A stretch of 64,000 nt of DNA from an uncultured Gemmatimonadaceae bacterium (lineage in GTDB: Bacteria > Gemmatimonadota > Gemmatimonadetes > Gemmatimonadales > Gemmatimonadaceae), in contig CAVUDW010000003.1 of the NCBI GenBank assembly GCA_963740355.1, forward strand, positions 1,600,001-1,664,000, in the 5' to 3' direction. The notes under the pieces are model-generated. The model searched no databases, was not told where the DNA came from, and saw only the letters and a program-made list of their open reading frames with translations. A program made the translations under genes and the position numbers. How positions within the stretch are numbered: position 1 is the stretch's first letter; each line of letters opens with the position of its first letter. Below are positions 10,138 to 48,061 of the stretch, piece after piece.

Positions 10138-10230
10138 CGGCGGGACGGACGACTTTCGCGGGTGGTGGCAGTTCCGACCGAATGGCGCCGCCACCACCCC
10201 AACTCATCAACGTCTCACCTCGCACCGCCC

Positions 10231-11021
10231 ATGCCTCACGACACGGCCCTCATTGCGACCATCGCCGCGGGACTTGGGCTGGCCTTCCTGTTCGGCCTCG
10301 TAGCGACTCGATACAAACTCCCACCCATCCTCGGCTACCTGCTGGCCGGCGTCGCAGTGGGCCCCTTTACACCAGGCTTCGTCGCCGACTCCGGACTGTC
10401 GTCGCAGCTTGCCGAGATCGGCGTCATTCTGCTGATGTTCGGCGTCGGCCTGCACTTCTCGATCAGCGATCTGCTGGCGGTGCGCCGGATCGCGGTTCCC
10501 GGCGCGATCGGACTGATGGTGATCGCGACGGCCTGCGGCGCGGTGCTCACGCAATTCTGGGGATGGTCGTGGGGGTCCGGAATCGTGTTCGGCCTCTGTC
10601 TGTCCGTCGCCAGCACGGTGGTGCTGCTGCGCGCCTTCGAGGATCGTGGCATCCTTGATTCAGCCGATGGCCGCCTCGCAGTTGGGTGGCTGATCGTGGA
10701 AGACCTGGTCACCGTGCTCGCCCTCGTGCTGTTGCCGGCACTCTCGCCGGCGCTTGGCGCGCCCACCTCGAGCACACGCGGCTCGTGATCGTGGCTGCCC
10801 CCGACGCATTTCAGGCGCGCGCGATTTTGGCCCTCTGCTTCCAGCTCAACCCCGGCGTCGAGGTGCTGGTGCGGACGCACAGCGACGAGGAGCGCGAGTT
10901 CCTCGAGTCGATGGGGGCGGCCAAGGCGCTGGTCGGCGAGCGCGAGCTGGCCATCAGCCTCACCCGCGAGGCGCTGCGCCGCTACGGCGTGGCGCCAGAC
11001 ATGGAAGCCGAATTCCGGTGA
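10231..11021 (+). pseudogene. ybaL: Kef-type cation:proton antiporter (YbaL/RosB-like) with internal deletion and frameshift
   Basis: 10231-10788 encodes the CPA2 N-terminus (GYLLAGVAVGPFTPGFVAD, LAEIGVILLMFGVGLHFS, LSVASTVVLL, GWLIVEDL). A different frame from ~10761 encodes the TrkA-N tail (AHLEHTRLVIVAAPD...VRTHSDEE...VGERELA). Confidence 0.85.
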
Positions 11022-11149
11022 CAGTGCACGGAATTCCCGAAATCCGGTGACAGTGCACGGAATTCGAATTCGATGACGCGGCACGAAATCGCGTCAGTAG
11101 CGGTGGCAGCGCACGAGCTCGATGGGAATGCGTGCACTGTCACCGGATT
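11014..11149. repeat. REP-like cluster: two direct and one inverted copy of TCCGGTGACAGTGCACG
   Basis: TCCGGTGACAGTGCACGGAATTC at 11014-11036 and 11043-11065; inverted CGTGCACTGTCACCGGATT at 11131-11149. Confidence 0.85.
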
Positions 11150-11231: not shown

Positions 11232-12149
11232 ATGAAGTCGTCCGTTGTCGTGAAATTGCCGCTCGCCGGCGCACTGATCCTTGCGATCGCCGCTTGCGGC
11301 GGCTCGCCCAAGCCCGCAGCTGATTCGACGGCGGCCAGCGCCGCGCCGGCTGCAACGGCGGCCGGCGACTTCCGCGCGCCGCTCGGAGTCCAGCTGTGGA
11401 GCTTTCGCACGCTCTCGAAGGATGTCCCGGCGATGCTGTCCACGGTCAGTGGCATGGGCTTCACACACGTCGAGACTGCAGGCCTCTATGGCAAGTCGCG
11501 CACGGAGTTCGCCGAGGCGCTGCGCACAGCCGGGCTGAAGGCCACGTCGATGCATGTGGGCTATGAGGACCTGAAGAACCATCCCGACAGCGTGATCGCC
11601 GACGCCAAGGCGCTCGGTGCGGAGTACGTCGGCATTGCCTGGTACCCGCATGACTCGACCGGCTTCACACCCGCCAATGCCAAGCAAGCGGTGCAGGACT
11701 TCAACGCGTTCGGGAAGACATTGAAGGCGGCGGGGCTCAAGTTCTTCTATCACAACCACGGCTACGAGCCGGTGCCGTTTGGTGACGGCACGTTGCTCGA
11801 CGTGATCATCAAGGAGACCGACCCGGCGCTGGTCAGCTTCGAGATGGATGTGCTGTGGACGTGGCTCCCCGGCCAGGACCCCGTGGGCCTGATCGCCAAG
11901 TATCCAGGTCGCTTCAAGCTGATGCACATCAAGGACATGAAGCCCGGCGTGCCGCGCGGCTCACTCGCCGGCGGCGTTGCTGACTCGCTCAAGGCGCCGA
12001 TCGGTGCTGGACAGGTGGACTGGCCTGCACTGCTGCAGGCTGCAGAGAAGGACGGGTTCGTGGAGTTCTACGTCGAGGACGAGACCACCGATCCGGTCAA
12101 GAATGCGCCGCAGAGCATCGCGTATCTGCGGGGCTTGAAGTACAAGTAG
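11232..12149 (+). CDS. Sugar phosphate isomerase/epimerase (xylose-isomerase-like TIM barrel), lipoprotein
   Basis: Lipobox IAAC; GVQLWSFR, FYHNHGYE, FEMDVLW, HIKD, YVEDE. Confidence 0.9.
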   Translation: MKSSVVVKLPLAGALILAIAACGGSPKPAADSTAASAAPAATAAGDFRAPLGVQLWSFRTLSKDVPAMLSTVSGMGFTHVETAGLYGKSRTEFAEALRTAGLKATSMHVGYEDLKNHPDSVIADAKALGAEYVGIAWYPHDSTGFTPANAKQAVQDFNAFGKTLKAAGLKFFYHNHGYEPVPFGDGTLLDVIIKETDPALVSFEMDVLWTWLPGQDPVGLIAKYPGRFKLMHIKDMKPGVPRGSLAGGVADSLKAPIGAGQVDWPALLQAAEKDGFVEFYVEDETTDPVKNAPQSIAYLRGLKYK

Positions 12150-12250
12150 TGCGTTCCGCCGCGAGCCGCTTCGGCGTTCCGCGGCGCGGTCGGATCACGC
12201 GGTCCGAGCTGCTGTCGCGCTTACAGTCCTGACGCAGCCACGCACGCACG

Positions 12251-12304
12251 AAACGACGAACGGCGCCCGCAAACTCGGGCGCCGTTCGCATTTCTCCGTA
12301 TTGC
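12251..12304 (-). terminator. Terminator hairpin preceded (minus strand) by GCAATACGGA, a degenerate tRNA-Gln 3'-end junction
   Basis: Stem CGAACGGCGCCCG/CGGGCGCCGTTCG at 12257-12288. TCCGTATTGC at 12295-12304 is identical to 22692-22701. Confidence 0.65.
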
Positions 12305-12373
12305 TACGTCCAGCCGGTCGCGCACGGTCGTGCGCGTGGCGTGTGCGTCGCGAGCCGTTCCCCTACGTCTAGG

Positions 12374-12928
12374 CTAGAGCGCAGCCGCAAGCGCCGTCAT
12401 GCCGCGTTCAAAGCCGTCATGCGGACCACTCGCTCCAAACATGCCGGACTGTTCGAGCACCACGTAGCCGTGCAGGAACGCCCACACGGCGACGGCGCCG
12501 GCGGTGTCATCGACTTTCGCGGTGCAGTCACCAACCAGTTGCAGGAGCTGATTCCACAGTGCCTTGCGCGCATCCAGATGACCCGCTGCGTATGGCGCCA
12601 CAAGCATGCTGTATCGTGCTGGCGAGGTACGCGCGAAGCTGAGGTAGGCGTCTGCTGCCGTGCGAAGATCGTCACGCGCGCCACGAGCCACGTCCTTTCG
12701 CCGGGCGACTGCGGCTTCAATCGACGAGCGGAGCGACTCAGCGACCTGTTCCGCGATCATCGCCTCCAACGTCGCCAGATCGCCGACGTGTTTGTACAGC
12801 GAGGCCGGGCGCACGCTCAGTGACTCAGCGAGTGCACGCATGCCCAATGAGTCGCGCCCCTGTGTGTCGAGGATGGAGAGCGCCGCGTCGATGATCGCCG
12901 GCGTGGAGAGTTTGGAGGGGTAGGCCAT
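12374..12928 (-). CDS. TetR family regulator
   Basis: IIDAALSIL...LGMRALAESLSVRPASLYKHV; VWAFLHGYVVLE. Confidence 0.9.
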   Translation of the reverse strand: MAYPSKLSTPAIIDAALSILDTQGRDSLGMRALAESLSVRPASLYKHVGDLATLEAMIAEQVAESLRSSIEAAVARRKDVARGARDDLRTAADAYLSFARTSPARYSMLVAPYAAGHLDARKALWNQLLQLVGDCTAKVDDTAGAVAVWAFLHGYVVLEQSGMFGASGPHDGFERGMTALAAAL

Positions 12929-12931
12929 AGA

Positions 12932-13001
12932 GAACACTGTACGTCTTGACATGATCCAAGGCAAGGAGTACAGTGTTCGCCATACAAGGCGTACAGTGTT
13001 C
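12932..13001. promoter_or_regulatory. Divergent promoter with three GTACAGTGTTC boxes
   Basis: GAACACTGTAC at 12932-12942; GTACAGTGTTC at 12968-12978 and 12991-13001; TTGACA(12946)-17 bp-TACAGT(12969). Confidence 0.75.
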
Positions 13002-13022
13002 ACCTTACCAAGGAGCGTGCAT

Positions 13023-13481
13023 ATGAGCACTCCAGATCGCGTTCACGACACCGCGCCACGCAGCGCATTCACTGGCGCCGCAGAGTCCGACCGGGCGTCC
13101 ACGCCAAGCGCTGCGACCGGCGGCGTCCGACTCGTGCTTCAGGCTGAAGGGTTCGCGGTACTTCTGCTGGCCGCCGTGCTGTACCGTCAGGGCGGGCACG
13201 GCTGGGGACTGTTCGCTGCACTGTTCCTGGCACCGGACGTCAGCTTCGTCGCGTACCTCGCAGGACCGCGGGCGGGGGCCACCGCCTACAATGCCTTCCA
13301 CAGCTACGTCGGTCCGATCGCGTTGCTACTCGTCGCGCTCACTGTTCCCAGCGCCGGCGTCATTCCGTTTGTGCACATCTGGGCTGCGCACATCGGTTTC
13401 GACCGCCTGATGCGATACGGCCTGAAGTATCCTGGCGATTTCCATCACACGCATCTGGGCTCGAAGCGGCGGACAGTGTGA
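13023..13481 (+). CDS. DUF4260-like membrane protein
   Basis: FLAPDVSFVAYLAGPRAGATAYNAFHSY; WAAHIGFDRLMRYGLKY...FHHTHLG; AAGGAG RBS. Confidence 0.85.
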   Translation: MSTPDRVHDTAPRSAFTGAAESDRASTPSAATGGVRLVLQAEGFAVLLLAAVLYRQGGHGWGLFAALFLAPDVSFVAYLAGPRAGATAYNAFHSYVGPIALLLVALTVPSAGVIPFVHIWAAHIGFDRLMRYGLKYPGDFHHTHLGSKRRTV

Positions 13482-13653
13482 CATCGTGTCCCTCGGTCGA
13501 ACGCAGTCGCAAGCGCACAACCCGTAGGCGGCCATGGCCGTACTTTCACTGACTAAGCGGGAGTCAGAAAGAGCATGATAAACTTTGCAAATCGGAGTTG
13601 TTTGTGCAGTCTATCAACTGCCTAGCTTGCCAATTGCTGGCTTTACTATGCTC

Positions 13654-13685
13654 TTGACTGAAGAATATGCATGGTATACCATGCA
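13654..13685 (+). promoter_or_regulatory. Sigma70-like promoter overlapped by a perfect 18-bp palindrome (probable autoregulatory operator)
   Basis: TTGACT(13654)-17 bp-TACCAT(13677); TGCATGGTATACCATGCA at 13668-13685. Confidence 0.7.
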
Positions 13686-13741
13686 GACAGCTCTAACCTC
13701 TGACCCGTCCGCTCCGCACCCTCGCACCACCCATCGCTGCC

Positions 13742-14263
13742 ATGCCCGCCCGCGCCGACACACAGTGGCTCCGACTCCGGCAGGCCATCGCCCTCCTTGA
13801 GCCGTGGGAGGGACTACAAACGGCCCGCGCCCCGATTCAGGGGTGGGTGTCGACGATCCGTCGGGCGCTCGGGATGAGCAGCGCGCAGCTCGCGGCGCGG
13901 ATGCGAATCAGTCGGCAGTCGCTCGAGGCGCTCGAGGCACGGGAAGTCACCGGCACAGCGACCGTCGATGCACTTCGCCGCGCCGCTGACGCGCTCGATT
14001 GCGACCTGGTGTACGCACTGGTTCCACGGCACGGGTCGCTCGAGTCTGTGGTCACCGCAAAGGCTCGCCGGGTCGCCGAGCGGCTCGTCGGTCGCGCGGG
14101 ACACACGATGACCCTCGAGCAGCAGACCGTGCCCGTGCGTGAGGCGGAGCACCAGATCGCAGTCCTCACCCGTCGCCTTCTGGCCGAGTGGCCGCGCGGC
14201 CTCTGGGATGAGATCGACGATCCGCCCCCCCGCGACGAACGCGCGACAGGCGACGTGGCGTGA
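13742..14263 (+). CDS. Mobile mystery protein A (XRE-HTH)
   Basis: GWVSTIRRALGMSSAQLAARM...ALDCDLVYALVP...HTMTLEQQ...LWD; coupled to the next gene. Confidence 0.9.
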   Translation: MPARADTQWLRLRQAIALLEPWEGLQTARAPIQGWVSTIRRALGMSSAQLAARMRISRQSLEALEAREVTGTATVDALRRAADALDCDLVYALVPRHGSLESVVTAKARRVAERLVGRAGHTMTLEQQTVPVREAEHQIAVLTRRLLAEWPRGLWDEIDDPPPRDERATGDVA

Positions 14264-14904
14264 CGGCGCCGGACGGGCCGGCGACGCCGCCACAGAGGCG
14301 GGGCGCCTTCGCCGTCGGCGCTCACATCGCCGGCGCCACGCCGGTTGATCCCGACGAGGCGGCGGACCTCATTCCCCCCGGCATCGAGACGGTCGAGCAA
14401 CTCAATGCCTTGGAGCAGACGAACATCTTGTCTGCGACGGAGTGGGCGCTGCGTCATCGGCGGCGTCACACGCCAGCGGCGGTGCTCAGCGAAGCGTTCC
14501 TGTTCGACCTGCATCGTCGCATGTTCGACGAAACCTGGCGATGGGCGGGTAAGACTCGCCGCACCGACAAGAACATCGGCGTCCACTGGCCGACCATTCG
14601 CGTCGCGCTGCGCGAGCGCGTCAGGGATGCGCAGTTGTGGCTGACCGAATCGGTATTCTCGCTCGACGAGGTGGCCGTGCGTCTACACCACGGCATCGTG
14701 CTGGTCCATCCCTTCCCGAATGGGAACGGCCGGTGGAGCCGGTTGGTGGCTGACACCTTCATGCATGCACACCGACGTGCACCGTTCGACTGGGGCGCGA
14801 GGAACCTCACGAGCGCAGGCGAGGCACGTGCGGCGTACCTCGCCGCTCTCCGGGCAGCAGATCACGGCGACTTTGCGCCGATCCTGAAATTCGCGCGATC
14901 GTAA
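14260..14904 (+). CDS. Mobile mystery protein B (Fic family)
   Basis: GATPVDPDE, LNALEQTNI, LHRRMFDETWRWAG; Fic motif HPFPNGNGRWSR. Confidence 0.92.
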   Translation: MTAPDGPATPPQRRGAFAVGAHIAGATPVDPDEAADLIPPGIETVEQLNALEQTNILSATEWALRHRRRHTPAAVLSEAFLFDLHRRMFDETWRWAGKTRRTDKNIGVHWPTIRVALRERVRDAQLWLTESVFSLDEVAVRLHHGIVLVHPFPNGNGRWSRLVADTFMHAHRRAPFDWGARNLTSAGEARAAYLAALRAADHGDFAPILKFARS

Positions 14905-15062
14905 CTGCTGCGGACCGAGCGCGCTGCTCGAAGCTCAGGTGCGTGGCCGACCGCGCGCGGCAACAACGCGGACCAGGACACTGGCATTGCCCGTTCGTGG
15001 TTAGAGGCTGATCGGCCGAGGGCATCGCGCGCTCGCGCGTCGATCAGTGCCGAGGGTAGCTC

Positions 15063-15106
15063 AAAACCAAACGACCGCCAGCGCCTCTTCGGCACCGACG
15101 GTCGTT
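15063..15106 (-). terminator. Intrinsic terminator following tRNA-Gln 3' fragment
   Basis: Minus strand AACGACCGTCGGTGCC-gaaga-GGCGCTGGCGGTCGTT-TGGTTTT. Confidence 0.7.
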
Positions 15107-15110
15107 CAGC

Positions 15111-15152
15111 TATTGCCCCTCCTGGGCTCGAACCAGGACTCTTCTGATCCAG
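15111..15152 (-). repeat. tRNA-Gln 3'-half duplicate (att-like direct repeat, copy 3)
   Basis: 42-bp TATTGCCCCTCCTGGGCTCGAACCAGGACTCTTCTGATCCAG identical to 22696-22737. Confidence 0.95.
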
Positions 15153-15332
15153 GAGGTGGCTAAACGGAAGACATGTGTGCCTGCTGCATCGGCTCCCAAT
15201 GCGATCTCGCTTCGGTGCGCAAGATAAGCCAGACGAGCAGAGTGCATTCCGTGGCGCGCGAGCGGCACGAGTCAACAATCCAGTTCTTCGGGACCTCTCA
15301 GGTTCACACGCTGTCACCCAATGCTGCGTGAT

Positions 15333-16748
15333 TCACGGCGCGAGCCGCACCGTGTCCAGGCTGATGACGTCGGGAATTGAGCGGTCGCCGCCGGCGATCA
15401 CCCGCGCGCAGACTACGACTTCGCGCACGCCACAGGTCACGCGATGACCTACCGCGATCCCATCGAGGTGAACGCGGCCAAGACGGCCCCCGGACGTGAC
15501 ACTGCGCCATGCACCGCCATCAGCAGACTCTCCGTCGAGCGAGGGTACTCTGGAGCGCACCTCGGACGTCGTACCGGGCAACGTGGCGTCCGGCGTCACC
15601 GCGCCGTACATCGACCCATTGCTTGCCTGCGTGATCACGACACGCGCGCCGGTACCGTCCGGAGCACGGAGCGTTACGACGTTCGTGTCACTGGAGTACG
15701 AGGCGTTCGAACCCGTCACGCTCGTATAGCCGCCAACGGCGCGAAGCACGCTGCTGTCGGCGGCGTTCCGCAACAGCTGGTACGGCGTGACCGTGAACGG
15801 CACTCCGGGGAAGATCGGCGTGACGCGCCTCCCTGTGGAGCACATTACGACGCCGCTCGCGGTGAGGCCGCAGGTCACCAGTCCGTTTTCGTCGTTGAGC
15901 AGGCGCACGATGTTTGAATCACTCGGTATCGGCAACCACGTGCGGTTTGCGAAAACGTACCCGCCACCGGTCTCACTCCCGAGCACACCCTTCCAGAGCG
16001 CGCCGCCCGCAGTGCGCCCCACTGAGCCACGGAACTCCACGAACGGTGGGTGCGTGATGTCGTTTGGCACAGTCGAGTCGGGACCGAAGCCCGTCCAGAA
16101 TGCATCGGGGCCGACTCCATTCCAGCACGCAGTGTTGCCATCGGTGAGCAGGGCGCACGCGCCCACGAGGCTAGCCGACAGCGACCGTACGGGTGCCGAG
16201 AACCGCAACCAGCGCGGCGTGGGCTGGAACTGCCCCGGACCGACGCAGGCGACGCGACCGCCCTGCTGGAAACACACTGACTCGGCGCCTGACGTCACGA
16301 CCGTGTCGGCCACCAGCGGTATGCCGCGACGAGCGAGCGTGAATCGACGCGTGAATTCCACCAGGCCGTCACCCCAGTATGTGCCGAGCGACAACACCTG
16401 CGCTGGCGAATCACTCGGCAGCCAGAGCACGCGTACGAGGCCCGTTGCCGTGTCGGCAGCAATCGATAGCGCGCGCCGTTCCCAGTCGCGCGATCGGAGC
16501 CAGCCGGTTGTCGCACTGCTGCGTGAGAGCCGCCAGAACTCTCGCACGCGCTGCCCCGACGCATCCAGCAACTCGAACAGCAACGTGTCAGGCACCGGCG
16601 TGAGGGGCTCCGCCACGCGGATCGTCCCAGGGGAGACGAGGCGCAACGTGTACGCGGAGTTGCCAGTCTGCGGCTCGCTCGCGGTTTCGCCGCATGCGGT
16701 GAATGCGACAATCGCTGCGGCCAGAACCATACGGGCTGAATAGCGCAT
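15333..16748 (-). CDS. Hypothetical lipoprotein with RCC1-like C-x-L-x-x-x-G-x-x-x-C repeats
   Basis: Lipobox FTAC; ACALLTDGNTACW, TCGLTASGVVMC. Confidence 0.6.
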   Translation of the reverse strand: MRYSARMVLAAAIVAFTACGETASEPQTGNSAYTLRLVSPGTIRVAEPLTPVPDTLLFELLDASGQRVREFWRLSRSSATTGWLRSRDWERRALSIAADTATGLVRVLWLPSDSPAQVLSLGTYWGDGLVEFTRRFTLARRGIPLVADTVVTSGAESVCFQQGGRVACVGPGQFQPTPRWLRFSAPVRSLSASLVGACALLTDGNTACWNGVGPDAFWTGFGPDSTVPNDITHPPFVEFRGSVGRTAGGALWKGVLGSETGGGYVFANRTWLPIPSDSNIVRLLNDENGLVTCGLTASGVVMCSTGRRVTPIFPGVPFTVTPYQLLRNAADSSVLRAVGGYTSVTGSNASYSSDTNVVTLRAPDGTGARVVITQASNGSMYGAVTPDATLPGTTSEVRSRVPSLDGESADGGAWRSVTSGGRLGRVHLDGIAVGHRVTCGVREVVVCARVIAGGDRSIPDVISLDTVRLAP

Positions 16749-16967
16749 GATGATAATATACCGTCGCACTGGCCTCGAGGTCACGCCAGCCGCGCTACGG
16801 CCCGGCTCAAGAACAACACGCTTCCCCGTGCGCTGTGATATGTCGAGCGAGATGCTTCAACGAGGCCCTTGTCACGAAAGAGCCAGAAAGCGAGTTGCCC
16901 TCCTTGCACGCGCTCAGGCTCGCCGAGCAGACCTGCAGAGTTTCGCGCCGCGCTGCACATTGACCCG

Positions 16968-18371
16968 ATGATCGTCTTTCCAAATCTCTTCCCGTCGCGC
17001 GATCGCCGACGGGCACACTGGGCGCTGGCGATTGCGATCGTCACCGCGATGTCCCCTGCCCCGCCGGCCGGCGCGCAGACGGGCAGCGATAGCGGGCGGC
17101 TGGACCAACGCATCGATGTCGTGACGCCACTCGCGCCTGAACTGGCCGCCTTCGGCAGCCATTCCGTCGGCGTCCGCACCATCACCGTCACCGACCGCAA
17201 TCGCCCCGACGTCGTTCACACCAGACCCGGCGAAGCCACGGCGCGCAGCGACCGATCGCTCACACTCGAGGTGTGGTATCCAGCGCAGCCCGCGCGCGCG
17301 CCGGTCCTCGGCACGTACCGCGCCATCATGCGTGATCCCACGGTCACCGTGACGCTGATTGGCCGCGCGCAACGAGACGCGATGCCAGTTGCGGCGGGCG
17401 GCCCGTTTCCGCTGGTGATCATCTCGCACGGCTACCCCGGCAACCGGTTCCTGCTCAGTCACCTGGGAGAGAACCTGGCCAGCAAAGGGTACGTCGTTGT
17501 GTCGATCGATCACACCGGAAGCACGTACGACGATCTGCAGGCGTTCGGCAGCACGCTCTATCATCGCCCGTACGATCAGTTGTTCGTGCTGAATGAGATG
17601 GCGCGGCTGGGTGCCGCGCAGTCCGGCAGCTTCCTGGCCGGGCACGTCGACGCCGGTCGCACCGGCATCATCGGCTATTCGATGGGTGGATACGGCGCGG
17701 TGAACGTGATCGGCGGCGGATTCCGCGCGGCAGCGGCCACGATGCCCGGTGCACCGCCCAATCGCCTGCTGCTGGAGCGCAGCGCCGACAACGCGGCCTA
17801 TCGTGAACGCGGCGGTGATGCGCGTATCAAGGCCGCGGTGGCCATCGGCCCGTGGGGCCTGCCGGCCGGTGTCTGGGATTCCGCCGGGCTGGCCGGCATT
17901 CGAACGCCTACCCTGTTCGTTGCCGGCAGCGCCGACGAGGTCTCAGGCTACGAGTCCGGGACCCGCGCCATCTTCCGCGGTGCCGTGAATGCCGATCGCT
18001 ACCTGCTGACATTTCTCGGCGCGGGCCACAACGCGGGTGCGCCGATTCCCGCGCCCGCGGAGAGCTACTCGTGGTCCGACTCACTGAAGTCGTATCCCTT
18101 CACGCACTATGCCGACCCAGTCTGGGACACCCGGCGCATGAACAACATCCTTGCACACTTCGTGACCGCGCATTTCGACGTGCAACTGAAGGGAGACAGC
18201 ACGCGACTGCCGTACATGCAGGTGGTACCGGCCGGGAAGGATGCCGTGTGGGCCATCGATCGCGCGGGCACGCCGCAACCCACGCATACGTACTGGAAAG
18301 GGTTCAAGCGAGGCACGGCGACGGGATTGATGCTGGAACACGAGGCCTCCGGAGAGCGTGCACGCCGGTAG
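16968..18371 (+). CDS. Secreted alpha/beta hydrolase (dienelactone hydrolase/PAF-acetylhydrolase-like)
   Basis: PLVIISHGYPG, GYVVVSIDH, nucleophile GYSMGG, AGSADEV, GHN. Confidence 0.88.
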   Translation: MIVFPNLFPSRDRRRAHWALAIAIVTAMSPAPPAGAQTGSDSGRLDQRIDVVTPLAPELAAFGSHSVGVRTITVTDRNRPDVVHTRPGEATARSDRSLTLEVWYPAQPARAPVLGTYRAIMRDPTVTVTLIGRAQRDAMPVAAGGPFPLVIISHGYPGNRFLLSHLGENLASKGYVVVSIDHTGSTYDDLQAFGSTLYHRPYDQLFVLNEMARLGAAQSGSFLAGHVDAGRTGIIGYSMGGYGAVNVIGGGFRAAAATMPGAPPNRLLLERSADNAAYRERGGDARIKAAVAIGPWGLPAGVWDSAGLAGIRTPTLFVAGSADEVSGYESGTRAIFRGAVNADRYLLTFLGAGHNAGAPIPAPAESYSWSDSLKSYPFTHYADPVWDTRRMNNILAHFVTAHFDVQLKGDSTRLPYMQVVPAGKDAVWAIDRAGTPQPTHTYWKGFKRGTATGLMLEHEASGERARR

Positions 18372-18584
18372 GTGCGTCACTCGCTGACAGGTTGGCCTGG
18401 TGGTGACGGTAGAGCCGTGCGACGCCGACCGAGACCGATGCGACGAGCGGCGAACACGCGGCGAAGCGAGCGATGACGCGGCCATCGAAGCGGTCTGCCC
18501 TGCTGGCGCAGGCGTAGGGTTGGCGGTTATGCCTCGCCTATGACGCTGGCCATGCATCGCATGACCAGCTGAGACCAGAGTCAT

Positions 18585-18630
18585 AAAACAAAAAGGCTGG
18601 CGGCGCGAAGTGCTTGCGCCACCAGTCTTT
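18585..18630 (-). terminator. Intrinsic terminator following tRNA-Gln 3' fragment
   Basis: Minus strand AAAGACTGGTGGCGCAA-gcactt-CGCGCCGCCAGCCTTTTTGTTTT. Confidence 0.75.
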
Positions 18631-18676
18631 CCGTATTGCCCCTCCTGGGCTCGAACCAGGACTCTTCTGATCCAGA
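18627..18676 (-). repeat. tRNA-Gln 3'-half duplicate (att-like direct repeat, copy 2)
   Basis: 50 bp identical to 22689-22738. Confidence 0.95.
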
Positions 18677-19128
18677 GCGTGGCTGAACAGAAAAGGTGTG
18701 TGACTGGCTTCGGCTCCCGATGCTATCGGACGGAGGTGAGCAGGCGAGCCAAATCGGCCCATCCCCGCCAGCGCGCAGACTTCGCCGTCGACGTCCAAGC
18801 GGGATCGCTGTACACTGGTCATTCTCGACTTGGCGGAGACACAAGCACAGCGAGAACGCAATCGTCAGCGTTTCGGTCTCATTCTTGGGCTCTGTGAACC
18901 ACCAGAAGCCCCAGTGGTTCGTGAGCGCGCTGCTCCGCCGCTGGGACGCTCGCCCCAATCTGCAGGTCCGGCAACACGACGGCACAACCCGTCTCCGACA
19001 CAATCCGATGCATCGGGTCAGATCACGGCGAACTCGCACCGTCACCCCCACGGACGATCTCGCGGCTGGGTCCACCTCGGTCCGGCAGCGCGAGACTAGA
19101 ATTCGCGCATGTCCCGCGATCTCGTCGC

Positions 19129-20310
19129 ATGCTGATCCACGTCGACCTCGTCGTCGTGTACATGATCATCTGTATCGTGCAGGGCGCCACCGCTGCCGGC
19201 ATGCTGCTCGCGCACGGCCGGACACGCCCTTCCGCGCGCTGGACGGCGCTCTGGCTTCTGGCCGTGACACTGCAGGTCATCGACTACACCCTGAGCCGAA
19301 GTGGGACGTACTATCGTCACCACGAGCTGTACTTCCTGCCTCTTTTCTACACGCTGGCGCTGGGCCCCCTGCTGTTCGGTTCCGTTCGCAGCGCACGGAC
19401 GACGGAGGCTTCGCTGGGACCCGTGCACTTCATCCCAGTGGTCGTCCAGGCGGCGTTCTACGTGATCATGTGCGTGCAGCCGGTCGAGACGAAGGCGCAG
19501 GTGTGGATGTCGCTGCACAAGCCCGTCACGCGGTGGCTGGAGTATTACGGCGCGCTGGTGTCCCTCGGCCTCTACCTGGCCGCAGCGTGGCGACTAGTCG
19601 GTGGCGACGAACCGGCTGCGCGGCGCCTGCGGCAGGGTGGCAGCGTGACCGCTGTCTTTCTCGGCGCGTCCGCCATCGACCCGCTCGTGAACGCGCACTA
19701 CCTGCCCGTCGGCGCGCCGCGCTTCTGGCTGTTTTCCCTCGGGCTGCCGCTGCTCGGCGGCGCGGTGGCACTCTGGGCGATGTTCGGTGCCCAGGTCCAG
19801 CAGGCCGCCGGACTGCTCGGGCTCCGTGAGCCGTCGATGCCGTCGGATCCGGACCCCGTCGCACCCGCTGCCGCCGGAATCAATGAAGCCCGCCGGGCAC
19901 CCGATCCAGCGCTGGTGGCGCGTCTCCGTACGGCGCTCGAGCGCGACCGAGTGTACCGCGATTCCGAACTCACCCTCGATGCCTTGGCGGCGCGCGTCGG
20001 GGTGTCAGCGAACGTCGCCTCGCAGGCACTGAATGCGGGGCTGGGCGGGTCATTCAGCGAACTGATCAACCGGTTTCGCCTCGCCGATGTCATGACGGCG
20101 CTGGATCGGCAGGATGTTCGGTCACACAGTGTGCTCGCGGTGGCGTTTGCGGCGGGCTTCAACTCGAAGTCCACCTTCAATCGCGTCTTCAGGGCGCACA
20201 CGGGGATGACGCCGCGCGAGTACCGGAACCGACCGCCGGCAGGGCGCGACGCCGGCCCCGGCGACACGGCACGTCCCGCGACAGGTCCCGACTTCCACGC
20301 GAGCGCGTGA
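19129..20310 (+). CDS. Membrane-anchored AraC family regulator
   Basis: Several N-terminal TM helices; C-terminal YRDSELTLDALA...AGFNSKSTFNRVFRAHTGMTPREYR. Confidence 0.9.
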   Translation: MLIHVDLVVVYMIICIVQGATAAGMLLAHGRTRPSARWTALWLLAVTLQVIDYTLSRSGTYYRHHELYFLPLFYTLALGPLLFGSVRSARTTEASLGPVHFIPVVVQAAFYVIMCVQPVETKAQVWMSLHKPVTRWLEYYGALVSLGLYLAAAWRLVGGDEPAARRLRQGGSVTAVFLGASAIDPLVNAHYLPVGAPRFWLFSLGLPLLGGAVALWAMFGAQVQQAAGLLGLREPSMPSDPDPVAPAAAGINEARRAPDPALVARLRTALERDRVYRDSELTLDALAARVGVSANVASQALNAGLGGSFSELINRFRLADVMTALDRQDVRSHSVLAVAFAAGFNSKSTFNRVFRAHTGMTPREYRNRPPAGRDAGPGDTARPATGPDFHASA

Positions 20311-20388
20311 GCACGTCCCACCCTACACATTGGGGCGCAAACGCCGCAGCACACGCGCACTGTTGGGCATGACCCCTCCACCGCCACC

Positions 20389-22299
20389 ATGCCCATGCTC
20401 CAAATGATGCACCCATGTCGCCGGACGATCACGCTCCTGACCGCCGGCACAGCCATTGTCGCCAGCGGTAGTGCCACGCCGCTCGCCGCGCAGCGAGCTG
20501 ACCTCGCGGCGGACATCCGCCGCGTCGAAACCAGCCTCGCCCCGAACGTCCCCGTGGCCAGCATGCCGGGCTGGCGACTCGAAGACCGCATGCGCGTGCA
20601 TGGGGTGCCGGGCGTCAGCATCGCCGTGATCCGGAACTATCGGGTCGTGTGGGCCAAGGGCTACGGTGTGGCCGATTCGGCCACGAAGCGTCGTGTGACA
20701 CCGTTCACCGTGTTTTCGGCCGGGTCGATCTCGAAGTTCGCCACGGCCATCGTTGCACTGCGCTTGGCGGCGGAACGCCGCGTCTCGCTCGACGCCCCGA
20801 TCAACACGATCCTCACGCACTGGAAACTGCCCGAGTCGGAGCGCACGGCCGCGCGCCCCGTCACCCTCGCGCTGCTGTTGAGTCATCGGGGTGGCACGAG
20901 CCAGTCGTCCTACTTCGGGTTTGCGCCACGCTCTGCGGGTGACCGGACGCCGTACCCGTCCGTAGTAGACGTTCTGCAGGGGGCGCCGGGCACGGAGAGC
21001 CGACCCGTCGTGGTGAACCAGCCGGTCGGGGAAGGGTTTGCGTACTCCGGCGGCGGGTACATGGTGGCTCAGCTGGCGCTCACTGACGCCACCGGCCGCG
21101 CGCCCGACGCGTACGCCGCGCTGGCGGCTGAAACGGTATTCACGCCACTCGGCATGCGTTCGAGCACCTTCGCGCAGCCGCTGCCGCCGTCGTTCGCGTC
21201 GCGCGCGGCGTGGGCCTACTCCGACGCGCCGTGGTTCCTCGGCATGCCGTACGTCTACCCGCAGCAGGCGCCGGCCGGCCTGTACGCGACCCCCACCGAT
21301 CTCGCGCAACTCGTCATCGAGGTGCAGCAGGCGTATCGCGGCCGGGGACGGCTCCTCGATTCGAGCGACGTGCATCGCATGCTGACGCCGCAGGCGGATG
21401 TCTCGCTCGGCGCGTACCGGGAGCAGATCGGCCTCGGCGCATTCCTGTTCCAGCGGGCCGACCGTTCAGGCGATGCGACGCGCTACTTCGAGCACATGGG
21501 CGTCAACGCCGGGTTCATCGCCTACGCCATGGGCAGCGTCACCGGTGGGAACGGCGTCGTCATCATGATGAACAACGACGGGGGCGCGGCGGAACTCGGA
21601 CGTGAGATCCGGCGCGCTGTCGCCAAGGCGTACGGCTGGCCGGGGTTCCTGCTGGATCCGCTGCGGCCTGTGCGCGGCGCATCGACCCTACTCGCGGACA
21701 TAGAGGGCCGCTACCAGCGAGGCCCGGACGCGGTGCTGCAGTTTCGTCGGGGACGTGGCGAGTTCGCGGCATACCTCGAGGAAGTTATCTCGGAGGGCCT
21801 CGGCGTCGGCGCGCCGATTCTTGCCGTGCCCATCGGGCATGATTCCATCGGCTTCACTGACTTTCCCGGCACCGCAGTCGTGCAGCGCGACAGCGTCGGG
21901 CGCGTCATCGGCCTGCGCATCCCGTATGCAGACCGTCCGATCCCGAAGCTGACGCCGGACCACCAGCTGCCGGGCGAGCTGTTGCGCGCGGGGCGATGGC
22001 CGGAGGCGGAGGCGGCCTACCGCGAACTCGCGCTGGACGAGTCCCGCATCACCTACATGGCGTACACACTGCTACGACGCCGACCGGCGAAGGACCATGA
22101 CCTGCAGTCGGCGCGCGTGTTGCTCACCGTGGCCGATGCGCAGCACCCCGCGTCAGCCGTCGTCCAGGTGCGCTGGGCCGAGTATCACCTGCTGCGGCAT
22201 GACACGACGTCGGCCATTGCCGCGTATCGCGTCGCACAGGCCCGTGACTCGAGCGACGCGAGCATCCGCGACGCGATCCATCGGCTCGGCAAACGCTGA
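20389..22299 (+). CDS. Serine hydrolase, beta-lactamase class C-like family, with TPR-like C-terminus
   Basis: VPGVSIAV, SISK (SxxK), LLSHRGG, FAYSGGGY, HMG. Confidence 0.9.
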   Translation: MPMLQMMHPCRRTITLLTAGTAIVASGSATPLAAQRADLAADIRRVETSLAPNVPVASMPGWRLEDRMRVHGVPGVSIAVIRNYRVVWAKGYGVADSATKRRVTPFTVFSAGSISKFATAIVALRLAAERRVSLDAPINTILTHWKLPESERTAARPVTLALLLSHRGGTSQSSYFGFAPRSAGDRTPYPSVVDVLQGAPGTESRPVVVNQPVGEGFAYSGGGYMVAQLALTDATGRAPDAYAALAAETVFTPLGMRSSTFAQPLPPSFASRAAWAYSDAPWFLGMPYVYPQQAPAGLYATPTDLAQLVIEVQQAYRGRGRLLDSSDVHRMLTPQADVSLGAYREQIGLGAFLFQRADRSGDATRYFEHMGVNAGFIAYAMGSVTGGNGVVIMMNNDGGAAELGREIRRAVAKAYGWPGFLLDPLRPVRGASTLLADIEGRYQRGPDAVLQFRRGRGEFAAYLEEVISEGLGVGAPILAVPIGHDSIGFTDFPGTAVVQRDSVGRVIGLRIPYADRPIPKLTPDHQLPGELLRAGRWPEAEAAYRELALDESRITYMAYTLLRRRPAKDHDLQSARVLLTVADAQHPASAVVQVRWAEYHLLRHDTTSAIAAYRVAQARDSSDASIRDAIHRLGKR

Positions 22300-22646
22300 G
22301 ACGAGCGCGACGCAGTTCCGACCCCATCAGCGCTTGGAGCACCGCTGAAAGATCTCCAACGCCTGCGGCGTCCCGGGGGCATCGATCTACCAATGGGCCC
22401 AGTGCAGGACAGGCACCGCCGTCGATCTGCTGTCAGAACACTTTCGATGTCCCTTTGTCAGAGAACTTCGTGATCGACCATGCGACACTCCAGGGTCACG
22501 GCGGCGGGAACGCCATGACGGAGCACACGACGATTCGACGACCCGAGCCCGTTCCTGCCGTGCGGTGCTGCAGCAGGCGAATAAGCTGACGCACGGTGGC
22601 GACGACTGCGGTCACACAGGTTGTGACTCTTCATGATCGCAGCCGC

Positions 22647-22692
22647 AAACAGAAACCCCGGCGGCGCCTAAGTGCAGGCACCGCCGGGCTTT
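22647..22692 (-). terminator. Intrinsic terminator of tRNA-Gln
   Basis: Minus strand AAAGCCCGGCGGTGCCT-gcactt-AGGCGCCGCCGGGGTTTCTGTTT. Confidence 0.8.
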
Positions 22693-22697
22693 CCGTA

Positions 22698-22770
22698 TTG
22701 CCCCTCCTGGGCTCGAACCAGGACTCTTCTGATCCAGAATCAGACATGTTGCCAGTTACACCAAGGGGCA
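22698..22770 (-). tRNA. tRNA-Gln (CTG), CCA not encoded
   Basis: Acceptor stem TGCCCCT...AGGGGCA; anticodon arm TCTGA-TTCTGGA-TCAGA; T arm CCTGG-TTCGAGC-CCAGG. Confidence 0.97.
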
Positions 22771-41942: not shown

Positions 41943-42791
41943 ATGTCAAAGCACACCCTGCTGCGCGCTGTCACTGCGCTGACCGTCGCCGCCCTCTTCA
42001 CCGCCTGCGGTGATTCGAACGGCCCGACCGACAGTGGCGTCTCCGCCTCCGTTTCTGCCGCCACGACCCTCGATGTCGCCACCGTCGCTGGCGACGCCGC
42101 ACAGGAAGACGTCGAGACCTTCAAGGTCAACCGCGGCGCCTTCGGCCTCGCCACGATCGACTTCGAACGCTTCGGCCGCTGGGACTCCTGCCCGTACGAC
42201 GCCGCCTCGAGCCGCTTCGTCTGCGTCGAAAGGACCCGCGGGCCGTTCACCTCCAGCCGCAGCTACGCCTATCTCGATGCCGCCGGCGCAGGCCAGAGTG
42301 CGTACAGCAGCACCACCACGGCCGCCGCGAACTTCAAGTGGTCGCTCAGTGGCACGATCACGCGCGAACGCTGGAGCGGCAGCATGTCACGCAACCGCGA
42401 CATCACGATGTCCGGCCTGCTCGGCACCAACACGACGGTCACCGTCAATGGTACCGGCTCCGCTGAAAAGCAGCGCACGAAGTTCCTGCGTGACAGCGCC
42501 GGCCCGAACGGCCTGACGCGTGAGTACAACATGGAATCGTCGCTCGCGATCGTGAACGTGGTCACCCCCGCGATCCGCATGCCAGACGCCTGGCCGGTGA
42601 GCGGCACGATCACGCGCAACTATCAGGTCACGCGCACCGATGCCACCAACGGCACGATCGTCACCACCCGCAACTCGGTGGTCACCTTCAACGGTACGCA
42701 GTTCGCCGACCTGGTGGTGAATGGCAAGGCCTTCACGCTCGACCTGGCCACGGGCAAGGTGACGGTCAAGGCAACGGTCACCGCTGGCTGA
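41943..42791 (+). CDS. Hypothetical lipoprotein
   Basis: Lipobox FTAC; AGGA RBS; strong codon bias. Confidence 0.8.
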   Translation: MSKHTLLRAVTALTVAALFTACGDSNGPTDSGVSASVSAATTLDVATVAGDAAQEDVETFKVNRGAFGLATIDFERFGRWDSCPYDAASSRFVCVERTRGPFTSSRSYAYLDAAGAGQSAYSSTTTAAANFKWSLSGTITRERWSGSMSRNRDITMSGLLGTNTTVTVNGTGSAEKQRTKFLRDSAGPNGLTREYNMESSLAIVNVVTPAIRMPDAWPVSGTITRNYQVTRTDATNGTIVTTRNSVVTFNGTQFADLVVNGKAFTLDLATGKVTVKATVTAG

Positions 42792-42803
42792 TCGACACGC
42801 ATC

Positions 42804-42852
42804 AAAAACAAAGCGCCCCGCATCGATGCTGATGCGGGGCGCTTTGTATTTT
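42804..42852. terminator. Bidirectional intrinsic terminator
   Basis: ACAAAGCGCCCCGCATC...GATGCGGGGCGCTTTGT with A- and T-rich flanks. Confidence 0.85.
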
Positions 42853-42874
42853 GTTGCCGGCACCAATCCCAGTC

Positions 42875-42918
42875 CAACGCGACACCGCACAACGCGACAC
42901 CGCACAACGCGACACCGC
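42875..42918. repeat. 15-bp tandem repeat x3
   Basis: CAACGCGACACCGCA at 42875, 42890 and 42905 (last copy 14 bp). Confidence 0.9.
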
Positions 42919-42928
42919 GCACCACCCG

Positions 42929-43507
42929 CTACCCCGCCGGCTGCGCCAACGCCAATAACTGCGTCACGATCCGCTCGGTCAGCCCCCACACGAGATCGTC
43001 GCCACGCCGATACGCCGGAAAACGCAGGCGCGCGCCACCACGATCGAATACATGCTCAGCAGCTGACGCGGGATCCCGCAACTCCGAGATGGGCATCCAG
43101 AAGGTCGAGTGGACCTCGTCATTCGGCACCAGCTCAACCGGCCGCTCGAGCGCAAACACAAATGGCCGCACGGCAATCGATGGCAGCGCCGCAGACCGCG
43201 GCCGAATGTCATCCAGCACACCGAGCAGCCGCGCGTCGACATCAAGATCCAGCGCAAGCTCCTCACGCGTCTCACGTCGAGCCGTGGCCTCCAGCGACGC
43301 ATCGACCACATCGCGCCGACCGCCCGGAAATGCCACATGCCCGCTCCACGGATCGCCAACACGCTCAGCCCGCCGGATGAACAACAGCTCTGCATCGGTC
43401 AACGACGTCCCACGCAACACGAGCGCCACCGCCGCCCAGCGCAATCCCTCCTCGTCACCTTCCTCCCGACGAGCATGCGCCCGCAGCGCAGCAAGCAACG
43501 CGTCCAT
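42929..43507 (-). CDS. NUDIX hydrolase, CoA pyrophosphatase family
   Basis: AAVALVL, WSGHVAFPGG, TARRETREEL, VWGLT. Confidence 0.92.
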   Translation of the reverse strand: MDALLAALRAHARREEGDEEGLRWAAVALVLRGTSLTDAELLFIRRAERVGDPWSGHVAFPGGRRDVVDASLEATARRETREELALDLDVDARLLGVLDDIRPRSAALPSIAVRPFVFALERPVELVPNDEVHSTFWMPISELRDPASAAEHVFDRGGARLRFPAYRRGDDLVWGLTERIVTQLLALAQPAG

Positions 43508-43538
43508 CAGCAGTCAACGCACGAAGACAACAGGCGAA

Positions 43539-43904
43539 TCATCCCTCGACGTCACCGTTCGCATCAACCCACCCGCGAAAGCCACCAGCCATCGACGCGA
43601 CATTCGTATACCCCATCTGCTTCAGCGACTCCGCCGACAGCGCTGACCGGTTCCCGCTCGCACAGTACAGGACGACCGTGGCGTCACGCGGCACGACTGC
43701 ATCAATCTTGCTCTCCAACGTGCCACGCGACATATGCACGGCACCTGCCGCATGGCCGAGGTTCCACTCGCGATCCTCACGCACATCGATCAACACGACT
43801 GACGGATCGGTGGCCCGCTTCGCAATGGTCTCCGCGGCCGACACTTCGACGATCCGCGTCTTTGCATCGGCGAACATCTCTGCTGCACTCTTCATCTGCA
43901 CCAC
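43539..43904 (-). CDS. Rhodanese-like protein
   Basis: LIDVRE..EW..GH, LYCASGNRS, MAGGFRGW. Confidence 0.93.
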   Translation of the reverse strand: MVQMKSAAEMFADAKTRIVEVSAAETIAKRATDPSVVLIDVREDREWNLGHAAGAVHMSRGTLESKIDAVVPRDATVVLYCASGNRSALSAESLKQMGYTNVASMAGGFRGWVDANGDVEG

Positions 43905-43943
43905 GCTCCGTTCGGTGTCTGGGAGTTCACGACTGCTCGACGA

Positions 43944-44876
43944 CTAGCTCACGTCCGACCACGGCCCAGCAACCGCCAGCGACACGGCATCGACATCCAG
44001 CGTCGCCCGCGCCCCAAGTGGCACGGTCCACTGATCGTCAATATGCCCAATCGGCAGGTTGGCAAGACAGGGCACCCGCAACCGTCCAGCCAACTCCGCC
44101 ACCAGGTCTTCAACACTCGATGCGCCGACGTTCTCGTCCTCCGGCACCTTCGTGAACTGCCCCACGGCAAGACCCACACAGCCGTCGAACGCGCCCGACT
44201 GCTCCAACTGCCGCAACAGCCGATCCACACGATACGCCGCCTCGTTCACATCCTCGAGCACGACGATCGCCCCGTCGCCTCGCAGCGCATCCGGCGTCCC
44301 ACTCAACGCCGCCAGCAACGACAAGTTGCCACCCGCCAACCGCCCGGTCACTCGCCCCGCCCGCACCGGCACCGCGCTCGGCCACACCCCACACGGCTCG
44401 CTCCGCTGCGTCACCGCGACCTGCAACGACTCGACGCTCATCGCCGGCATCGGCGCCCGCGCAGTATGCGTGTGAAAAGTCACCGCACCAACTCGCGCCG
44501 CAATCGCACAATGCAACACGGTCACATCCGAGAACCCGATCACCGGCTTCGGCCGCGCCGCAAACGCCTCGAACGACAACGCCGACACAATCCGCGACAG
44601 GCCAAATCCACCGCGCACACACCACACAGCATCGATCCCGGGATCGTCCAACGCCCACTGCACATCGCGCAACCGCTCAGCGTCACTCCCGGCGAGATAC
44701 CCATCACTCCGCAACACACTCGCACCACGCACTGGCTCCCACCCATACGCACGCACGGTCGCCTCGGCCCGCGCCACGTCGGCCTCGCCACGCAATGGCC
44801 CGGATCCACACACGAGCGCCACCCGCGCGCCAACATCCAATGCGCCAGGCCACCACGATTTCGATGATATCTGCAT
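43944..44876 (-). CDS. LD-carboxypeptidase (peptidase S66)
   Basis: YLAGSDAER, RGGFG, GFSDVT, GGNLSLL, LEDVNE, PIGH. Confidence 0.93.
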   Translation of the reverse strand: MQISSKSWWPGALDVGARVALVCGSGPLRGEADVARAEATVRAYGWEPVRGASVLRSDGYLAGSDAERLRDVQWALDDPGIDAVWCVRGGFGLSRIVSALSFEAFAARPKPVIGFSDVTVLHCAIAARVGAVTFHTHTARAPMPAMSVESLQVAVTQRSEPCGVWPSAVPVRAGRVTGRLAGGNLSLLAALSGTPDALRGDGAIVVLEDVNEAAYRVDRLLRQLEQSGAFDGCVGLAVGQFTKVPEDENVGASSVEDLVAELAGRLRVPCLANLPIGHIDDQWTVPLGARATLDVDAVSLAVAGPWSDVS

Positions 44877-44921
44877 GGAACGGATGCTAAGGGATCGCCC
44901 CTCCGATGCTACCGTCGCGCC

Positions 44922-48056: not shown

Positions 48057-48061
48057 AAACG

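Follow-up and report, generated by a model that had tools for sequence, protein, structure and literature searches.

A tandem array of integrase-less modules behind tRNA-Gln(CTG) in Gemmatimonadaceae, probably moved in cis by the integrase of a visiting island

Cis-mobilizable elements (CIMEs) are defined as elements without integrase or transfer genes that keep both attL and attR and are transferred in cis (PMC5704250, PMC7563491). Streptococcal CIMEs stack at one target, carry cargo (1.2-13 kb in Streptococcus salivarius) and travel in cis when an element arrives beside them. Composites in S. salivarius have two to three elements, the CIME being always the one farthest from the target, in a survey for which CIMEs were only detectable beside an integrative and conjugative element (ICE) or an integrative and mobilizable element (IME). 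Two other systems stack at stable-RNA genes: many tandem islands lie behind ssrA in Dehalococcoides, with a conserved motif, not part of the target, directly upstream of each repeat, 15 of them without an integration module and proposed as CIMEs and 16 retaining the module (PMC3146451), and the tycheposon islands of Prochlorococcus combine a tyrosine integrase at a tRNA with partial tRNAs between islands, newcomers pushing older islands outward (10.1101/2020.12.28.424599). Here we describe an array of three units behind tRNA-Gln(CTG) in a 64,000-nt stretch (the window; G000:C3:1600001-1664000) of the 5.45-Mb, five-contig genome of an uncultured Gemmatimonadaceae bacterium (G000; 94.5% complete). 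We propose that this array is probably a stack of cis-mobilizable, integrase-less modules of a kind that the tyrosine integrase of a visiting island would move at the same tRNA. The junctions and unit ends are as follows.

22698..22770, minus strand: intact tRNA-Gln(CTG) (ARAGORN); its junction is the attL of the array
22604..22697, minus strand: unit 1 left end, a terminator plus a degenerate array of arm-type repeats (hairpin z -5.9; arm motifs)
18678..18705, minus strand: unit 1 right-end motif, RGTCA, 14 nt, TCAGCCAC (leave-one-out matrix score 33.1, background maximum 4.9)
18636..18677, minus strand: junction 2, overlap plus exact tRNA 3' half; the first base of the overlap differs from the tRNA loop
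18525..18635, minus strand: unit 2 left end, a terminator plus a degenerate arm-repeat array (73-81% identical to the left ends of loci L060, L058 and L011; z -4.4)
15155..15182, minus strand: unit 2 right-end motif (leave-one-out score 31.9)
15113..15154, minus strand: junction 3, overlap plus exact tRNA 3' half; the second base of the overlap differs from the tRNA loop
15063..15110, minus strand: unit 3 left end, a terminator of a second end class without an arm array (98% identical over 48 nt to L002 and L005; z -6.8)
12250..12304, minus strand: probable far boundary, eroded, with a 10-nt tRNA-end remnant plus a terminator hairpin, without right-end motif or tRNA half

The original prediction, made from the letters alone, had described an intact tRNA-Gln and two copies of its 3' half that start in the anticodon loop, terminators behind the junctions, and homologous ends in two units, and each of these features was recovered. 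The tRNA 3' part has exact copies at 18676-18636 (41 nt) and 15152-15113 (40 nt), at spacings of 4062 and 3523, and BLAST finds no further copy elsewhere in the 5.45-Mb genome. Both copies start within the 7-nt anticodon loop (22739-22733), which is the likely crossover (overlap) region. The four hairpins are all strong (z -5.9, -4.4, -6.8 and -5.8, from 200 shuffles each), a consensus terminator scan having reported just the first of them, and nothing passes an Rfam scan of the window except two tRNAs. Units 1 and 2 have about 50 nt in common upstream of the repeat (84% identity over 106 nt including it), and the right-end motif of unit 1 may be read as an arm site followed by a core-type half-site. 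The left end of unit 1 also resembles the left ends of integrase-bearing islands (83.7% over 92 nt to L012; 82.6% to L015 and L019). The units have a GC content of 65-68%, close to the 65% of the genome, and contigs of run X1, which may not be independent of the assembly, agree with parts of units 1 and 3 and of the two flanks to within 0-1 differences.

A fourth junction had been proposed from a remnant of the tRNA end. Its 10-mer and its hairpin are present, although a profile of more than 70 junctions gives no score at 12295-12304. The 10-mer, GCAATACGGA, occurs three times in the window, where 0.05 occurrences are expected, and is confined there to three junction positions (the tRNA end, 18630-18639 and 12295-12304); the genome as a whole has eight. 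The remnant lies about 150 nt from the end of the gene for a sugar-phosphate isomerase, which in genomes G016 and G017 comes after the last junction. It is probably, or at least plausibly, what is left of an eroded last junction, and no more than a candidate att site.

We searched 61 genomes, 20 of them in the genus, and found at least two matches to the repeat in 15 of the 20, none in three, and one, with the tRNA at a contig end, in two. The deepest array, that of G005, consists of the tRNA plus eight copies on one contig; the array of G003 has the tRNA plus six. A 25-nt junction pattern added 28 metagenome loci; it selects junctions with an intact motif and inflates motif conservation somewhat. 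We excluded 12 loci from other genera, a locus that overlapped another and one assembly-gap duplicate, which left 108 junctions, including 22 tRNA genes, and 57 closed units with some redundancy among them. One closed unit is 70.8 kb long; the other 56 span 720-5392 bp, with a median of about 1.9 kb. Each module consists of a tRNA 3' half with terminator, then cargo, then a 28-nt right-end motif, and the next module is joined at the 7-nt anticodon loop. A motif that is not derived from the tRNA, RGTCA-14 nt-TCAGCCACA, stands upstream of each copy. In 72 distinct junctions the anticodon loop is where identity to the tRNA begins, and 61 of them have the 7-nt overlap intact. In a leave-one-out test, 64 of 71 distinct right ends outscore every one of 15,780 background windows. 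The motif pairs two fixed words at fixed spacing with a variable 14-nt middle, and conservation ends abruptly about 27 nt from the loop. The two T-stem alleles found among the copies differ by a compensatory pair (67 and 12, with 7 mixed, of 86), as expected if each copy once served as a working tRNA half.

The two ends of the modules are not equally conserved. Among 53 distinct closed units, scored here with a matrix that was not leave-one-out, the right-end motif is kept in 50 and at least two left arm motifs in 10 (2 of 53 in the control); 41 units keep the right end without a left arm array, while both ends carry arm repeats in window units 1 and 2. At its left end the integrase-bearing island has six copies of a 7-nt motif, the same motif that forms the RGTCA word of the right end, and we read these copies as putative arm sites. 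The three island left ends contain six copies, and the mean over all 88 left ends is 0.74, compared with 0.06 for control windows. Under cis travel, excision from the left end of an island to the right end of a module requires only the right end, which would also explain the transfer of blocks; the asymmetry of the ends thus seems to fit cis movement with an island better than independent movement in trans.

Modules appear to have moved between species. Full-length units recur at different ranks in G003 (rank 1) and G005 (rank 8) at 92% identity, in G019 (rank 1) and G005 (rank 6) at 93%, and in G001 (rank 1) and G010 (rank 4) at 95%, whereas the host flanks of the tRNA in these pairs are 75.5%, 86% and 73% identical; overall, units shared across species are 92-99% identical and the flanks 73-86%. 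A block of three units is common to G005 and G010 (93-99% identical, flank 77%), with one junction deleted in G010. In loci L044 and L052 the 123 nt leading to the tRNA end are the same. A 4830-bp unit follows in L044 and is missing from L052, after which the two loci share a unit at 99.5% identity, starting at the loop. L058, and likewise L066, has an extra unit ahead of the first unit of G003, with 97% identity upstream. Most shared units have their breakpoints at a junction. Gene content behind the tRNA therefore varies among relatives and units change rank, so the order is not the fixed one expected of ordinary decayed islands, and together with the shared ends this bears out the suggestion of a family of non-autonomous modules. 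Of the 17 loci whose first unit is closed (two pairs being redundant), 16 have no integrase in the unit adjacent to the tRNA. Paired cargo (RelE/HTH, nucleotidyltransferase/HepT or mobile mystery) is found, by Pfam or DNA homology, in 11 of 34 closed units of relatives.

A candidate for the enzyme that would move these modules lies on an island. Weak PF00589 matches stand directly beside tRNA-Gln in G009, G018 and G014, and a direct search found this helper integrase (P0001) in only these three of the 20 genus genomes; its copies in loci labelled Gemmatimonadaceae are 91-94% identical. In G009 it heads, beside the tRNA, a 70.8-kb island with metal-resistance genes whose far end is the motif with a 15-nt spacer, and this island alone among the 57 closed units has an intact lambda-type integrase. 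P0001 scores 26.9 against PF00589, marginally below the cut-off of 27.1, and its profile found no solved structure by sequence, but a fold search did match: the model (pLDDT 89.6) has an N-terminal beta-sheet domain and its best match is lambda integrase (E 5e-10). Residues R499, K529, H605, R608, W631 and Y641 are invariant in four sequences. With these catalytic residues and with modelled arm-binding, core-binding and catalytic domains, P0001 is predicted to act as a lambda-type tyrosine integrase. The integrase is 94% identical between G009 and G018 and their flanks 69%, which indicates that the island itself moves. Fragments of this integrase occur in four of the 56 small closed units (two distinct cassettes) and in two open units, though not in the window units, so at least part of the family appears to have arisen by deletion of islands, the published CIME route; the other 52 small closed units have no integrase trace.

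No such enzyme was found in the window's genome. Six frames of 12150-22697 contain no integrase remnant (HMM and tblastn searches; best E 0.14), in agreement with the earlier observation that no unit encodes an integrase and unlike islands decayed in place with a remnant in each unit, and neither Pfam searches nor the scan for tyrosine recombinases gave a match in the 64-kb window. No homologue of P0001 turned up in the genome by tblastn (nothing at E<1), and a profile of its clade matches only two recombinases there (E 3e-7 and 6e-7). The host recombinases were rejected as movers: four PF00589 matches exceed the cut-off, none of them close to the tRNA-Gln integrase, and from sequence and context we take them to be XerD, XerC, an IntI-like integrase and a P4-like integrase at tRNA-Arg(CCT). 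A phage helper was likewise set aside, viral contigs having no match to the junction pattern or to the integrase. The trans-acting recombinase that had been envisaged is thus not a resident gene, as it would be in an integron; the sole candidate is on an island in three of 20 genus genomes and was not detected in this one. A recombinase-like gene at tRNA-Pro that Pfam does not detect illustrates that highly divergent recombinases can escape detection, and the assembly searched is 94.5% complete.

We propose the following mechanism, whose steps are inferred from the anatomy of the units and from the CIME literature. An island would integrate at the tRNA loop, ahead of the resident modules, and its integrase could afterwards remove the DNA that lies between the tRNA junction and any downstream module's right end, so that the excised block would carry one or several modules to a new host. 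Should the island leave alone, the 3' half and terminator of the first module would complete the tRNA. Completion of the tRNA and use of the right end would preserve exactly these two parts by selection; the left arm array, which most modules lack, would not be under such selection. New modules would arise by internal deletion of islands, modules would fuse when a junction is deleted, and toxin-antitoxin-like cargo would slow module loss. The window's own array is probably resting and may be frozen, since no integrase was found in its genome and each distal overlap has one changed base; a mismatch in the overlap hinders strand exchange in lambda-type systems.

Several observations weigh against this mechanism. 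No relaxase, conjugation or phage family is recognised among the 57 called ORFs of the island, which leaves the transfer step without a vehicle; two island proteins tested as relaxases gave no family match, one of them with a weak integrase lead in 15% of the members of a cluster. Both island right ends held in genomes have a 15-nt spacer where most modules have 14, so that the ungapped matrix gives the right end of the G009 island a score of -1.4 and a genus-wide pattern search with the 15-nt spacer matches only two of 20 genomes; the metagenome contig L041, which carries the terminal gene of the island, has a 14-nt spacer. Several classes of left-end terminator have no known parent island. 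L043 and L044, whose flanks are 73% identical, have 2240 bp in common at 99.7% identity that begin inside cargo and not at a junction. Units farther from the tRNA are no more decayed than nearer ones (rho -0.10, p 0.53, n=39), which argues against a simple conveyor with strict insertion at the front and for the addition of blocks or reordering. Finally, the excised circles that the original prediction had suggested looking for, or other integrase-dependent events, were absent among the joints listed (15 of 57) in four runs, contigs being prone to drop rare variants.

These points must be set beside other explanations. The model first put forward, in which each module forms its own small circle, inserts singly and borrows an integrase from elsewhere, seems unlikely to us, even though it accounts for single modules of about 1-4 kb that recur full length at ranks 1 and 8, 1 and 6, and 1 and 4, for the clean presence or absence of one unit in L044 and L052 and the extra front unit of L058 and L066, for the flat decay with rank, and for the arm repeats at both ends of window units 1 and 2. 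In lambda-type systems a circle's own site requires arm sites, and most modules, with 41 of 53 keeping the right end but no left array, could thus presumably not form a complete phage-type site on a circle of their own. Blocks are shared between species, no circle joint is seen among the joints listed, and we found no sequence common to unit interiors that might serve as a transfer origin. The minority with an arm array at both ends, window units 1 and 2 among them, may nonetheless form circles of their own.

Exchange by homology alone, in which the 45-70-nt repeats left by old islands recombine with those on incoming DNA so that modules are lost, gained or swapped, would explain the tract shared by L043 and L044 from within a unit, the junction deleted in G010 relative to G005, and a window with mutated overlaps in a genome without an integrase. 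We consider it improbable, given that a variable middle between two fixed words fits protein binding and not length of homology, that conservation stops abruptly about 27 nt from the loop, and that the breakpoints of most shared units are at the junction. The slightest chance of the three goes to autonomous islands that decayed in place and are immobile. The integrase fragments in some units, the eroded last junction and the mutated overlaps of the window would suit such remnants, and degenerate partial tRNAs are common in tycheposon islands (10.1101/2020.12.28.424599). Nevertheless, units are far more alike across species than their host flanks, the great majority of small closed units are free of integrase traces, and the last 400 nt of the islands match no module beyond the motif. 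For the family this explanation appears largely refuted; for the window's own copy today it may hold.

Our preferred reading, modules carried in cis by an island's integrase, can be compared with published systems. The window units fit the definition of CIMEs as far as sequence can test it: they have no integrase, their eight genes have other or no family matches where conjugation or mobilisation genes might have been expected, and units 1 and 2 keep both attachment sites by sequence, with one changed base in each distal overlap, unit 3 having lost its far site. With regard to descent from an ICE or IME, the ends and some integrase fragments tie the family to an integrase-bearing island in which no relaxase or conjugation genes are recognised, and which is thus no more than a possible ICE or IME. 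The asymmetry of the ends and the sharing of blocks bear on cis transfer indirectly. An integrase of their own, as in autonomous tRNA islands (tycheposons, phage-inducible chromosomal islands or IMEs), is absent. The arrays differ from what is described for the S. salivarius composites in that they reach eight units, have integrase-less units at rank 1 and units as small as 0.7 kb, change rank, and have a helper without a conjugation module. In Dehalococcoides a serine recombinase acts in the T-loop region and the cargo is one gene family (PMC3146451), whereas here a tyrosine integrase would act at the anticodon loop, one of 57 closed units is autonomous and the cargo consists of unrelated small genes. 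Tycheposons encode an integrase and leave remnants without clear boundaries (10.1101/2020.12.28.424599), unlike the sharp conserved ends and missing integrases here. A survey of conjugation-linked islands in six species reports only 6% without integrase vestiges and nearly none below 4 kb, with a method floor of 2 kb (10.64898/2026.01.13.699239). The arrays thus differ from these systems in their depth, small size, near-total non-autonomy, integrase-less rank-1 units and reordering across species, and our literature search, which largely excluded subscription journals and did not cover supplements, found no paper describing an all-CIME reshuffled tRNA array or this tRNA-Gln locus.

The likeness to an integron that had been suggested holds for the behaviour of a cassette store and not for the machinery. 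Integrons are rows of cassettes served by a single recombinase, IntI, acting on attC sites, which have RYYYAAC...GTTRRRY ends and fold into a single-strand hairpin. Like them, the arrays are chromosomal rows of units of one to three genes, rich in toxin-antitoxin-like pairs, that would be shared and reordered by one tyrosine recombinase. In contrast to integrons, no IntI lies adjacent (the IntI-like gene of this genome is about 720 kb away), the attC pattern is found at none of 85 junctions and junction folding is slight (z -1.0 to -1.8), a terminator heads every unit, and genes lie on both strands (78 ORFs with the tRNA and 30 against it in 52 units) and are not co-oriented from an upstream promoter; the enzyme would be lambda-like and transient. 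On IntI, attC and orientation alike, membership fails, and the likeness is a functional one. A separate region of the genome, G000:C3:2337000-2344166, has an IntI-like integrase with a row of small co-oriented genes and is probably a true integron, and a long PF00589 match similar to the IntI-like one occurs in most genus genomes.

The original prediction had named a serine hydrolase and an AraC regulator, an alpha/beta hydrolase, mobile mystery B and A, DUF4260 and TetR as cargo, all of which family searches confirm. Eight genes are called in the window units, six of them running opposite to the tRNA; they are listed here with the flanking gene.

20389..22299, plus strand: unit 1 serine hydrolase, beta-lactamase/PBP fold (PF00144, E 4e-43)
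19129..20310, plus strand: unit 1 AraC-family regulator with a hydrophobic N-terminal half (PF12833, PF00165)
16968..18371, plus strand: unit 2 alpha/beta hydrolase (PF12740/PF03403-like), start taken from the codon-usage caller
15333..16748, minus strand: unit 2 protein of 471 aa (the lipoprotein of the prediction) without Pfam or NCBIfam match, possibly secreted
13723..14904, plus strand: unit 3 mobile mystery A (13742-14263, HTH) and B (14260-14904, Fic), TIGR02612 and TIGR02613 above curated cut-offs
13026..13481, plus strand: unit 3 DUF4260 gene (PF14079), divergent from the TetR gene
12374..12928, minus strand: unit 3 TetR-family regulator (PF13305, PF00440)
11232..12149, plus strand: sugar-phosphate isomerase (PF01261), chromosomal flank past the array and outside it (84-86% identical to the flank of G009, G016 and G017)

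The serine hydrolase of unit 1 scores far under every class C beta-lactamase cut-off. In unit 2, one contig of run X6 joins the alpha/beta hydrolase gene to a right-end junction without the neighbouring gene (18687 to 16896; 38 letters on the short side), which hints that unit 2 is a fusion. The mobile mystery module of unit 3 recurs at 77-85% identity in L001, L002, L005, L008, L042, L062 and L065, and the DUF4260 gene has no counterpart in the locus of any relative fetched. The junction profile gives no match in the stretch from the mobile mystery pair to DUF4260, so a hidden junction there was rejected, and a T-arm-like word at the end of DUF4260 was dismissed as coding sequence. A 23-nt tandem repeat (87%) at 12962-13007 overlaps a promoter-like site between TetR and DUF4260 and is a likely operator.

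We also note a number of features around this locus and at other tRNA genes. Beyond the isomerase, at 10162-11065 of the window, a Na/H-exchanger-family gene is accompanied by a TrkA-N fragment in another frame, and the two appear to be an internally deleted Kef-type gene; it ends in a 29-nt tandem duplication (11008-11065) whose word GGTGACAGTGCAC also occurs in several relatives' units. About 7 kb of the window at 42000-49000 has strong negative GC skew (to -0.35) with positive AT skew and is perhaps one long repetitive gene. Adjoining the island right end, and again the right end in L041, is a gene for a 576-aa protein (L021:1370-3100), whose look-alikes are mostly unnamed, a minority (17% of one cluster) having an Upx-like anti-phage label. 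The gene beside tRNA-Pro mentioned above encodes 626 aa (G000:C3:565533-567414; L078:10534-12414) and has, by eye, a tyrosine-recombinase-like C-terminus without Pfam match; it heads apparent tandem islands of about 100 kb and 37 kb, with tRNA-Pro(GGG) 3' halves at C3:466875-466916 and C3:429731-429772 and with a right-end motif of their own. A 3.8-kb unit with no PF00589 match (G000:C3:2554386-2558305; L075), flanked by tRNA-Phe and a degenerate repeat of the 3' half of this tRNA, is possibly a second integrase-less unit, and an island of about 16 kb at tRNA-Arg(CCT) (G000:C2:2356822-2372836) has the P4-like integrase and a primase-like gene. In another family, G053 (L017, L018, L032 and L033) has a parallel tRNA-Gln(CTG) array with different, longer right-end motifs, which also holds the C-terminus of another integrase-like gene and is apparently an independent version of the arrangement.

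CIMEs are usually seen as decayed leftovers beside an active element, whereas here they are the main population: integrase-less units stand in every genus genome with an assembled locus, with sharp ends and up to 99% identity between species, and the helper is rare. A further step, which we regard as possible though doubtful, is that the modules form a self-sustaining, integron-like cassette pool on a tRNA, with minimal units made of a 3' half, a terminator and a 28-nt end. It is similarly doubtful, though conceivable, that such units gain cargo without a full island and that the integrase is never kept by the host. Were there such a pool, units would be excised, reordered and exchanged across the whole genus. 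The case offers a candidate integrase together with a 7-nt overlap and an arm motif, and it predicts that the right end is needed and the left arm is not. If the proposed model is true, tRNA hotspots could serve as standing gene-exchange arrays that island finders centred on integrases miss.

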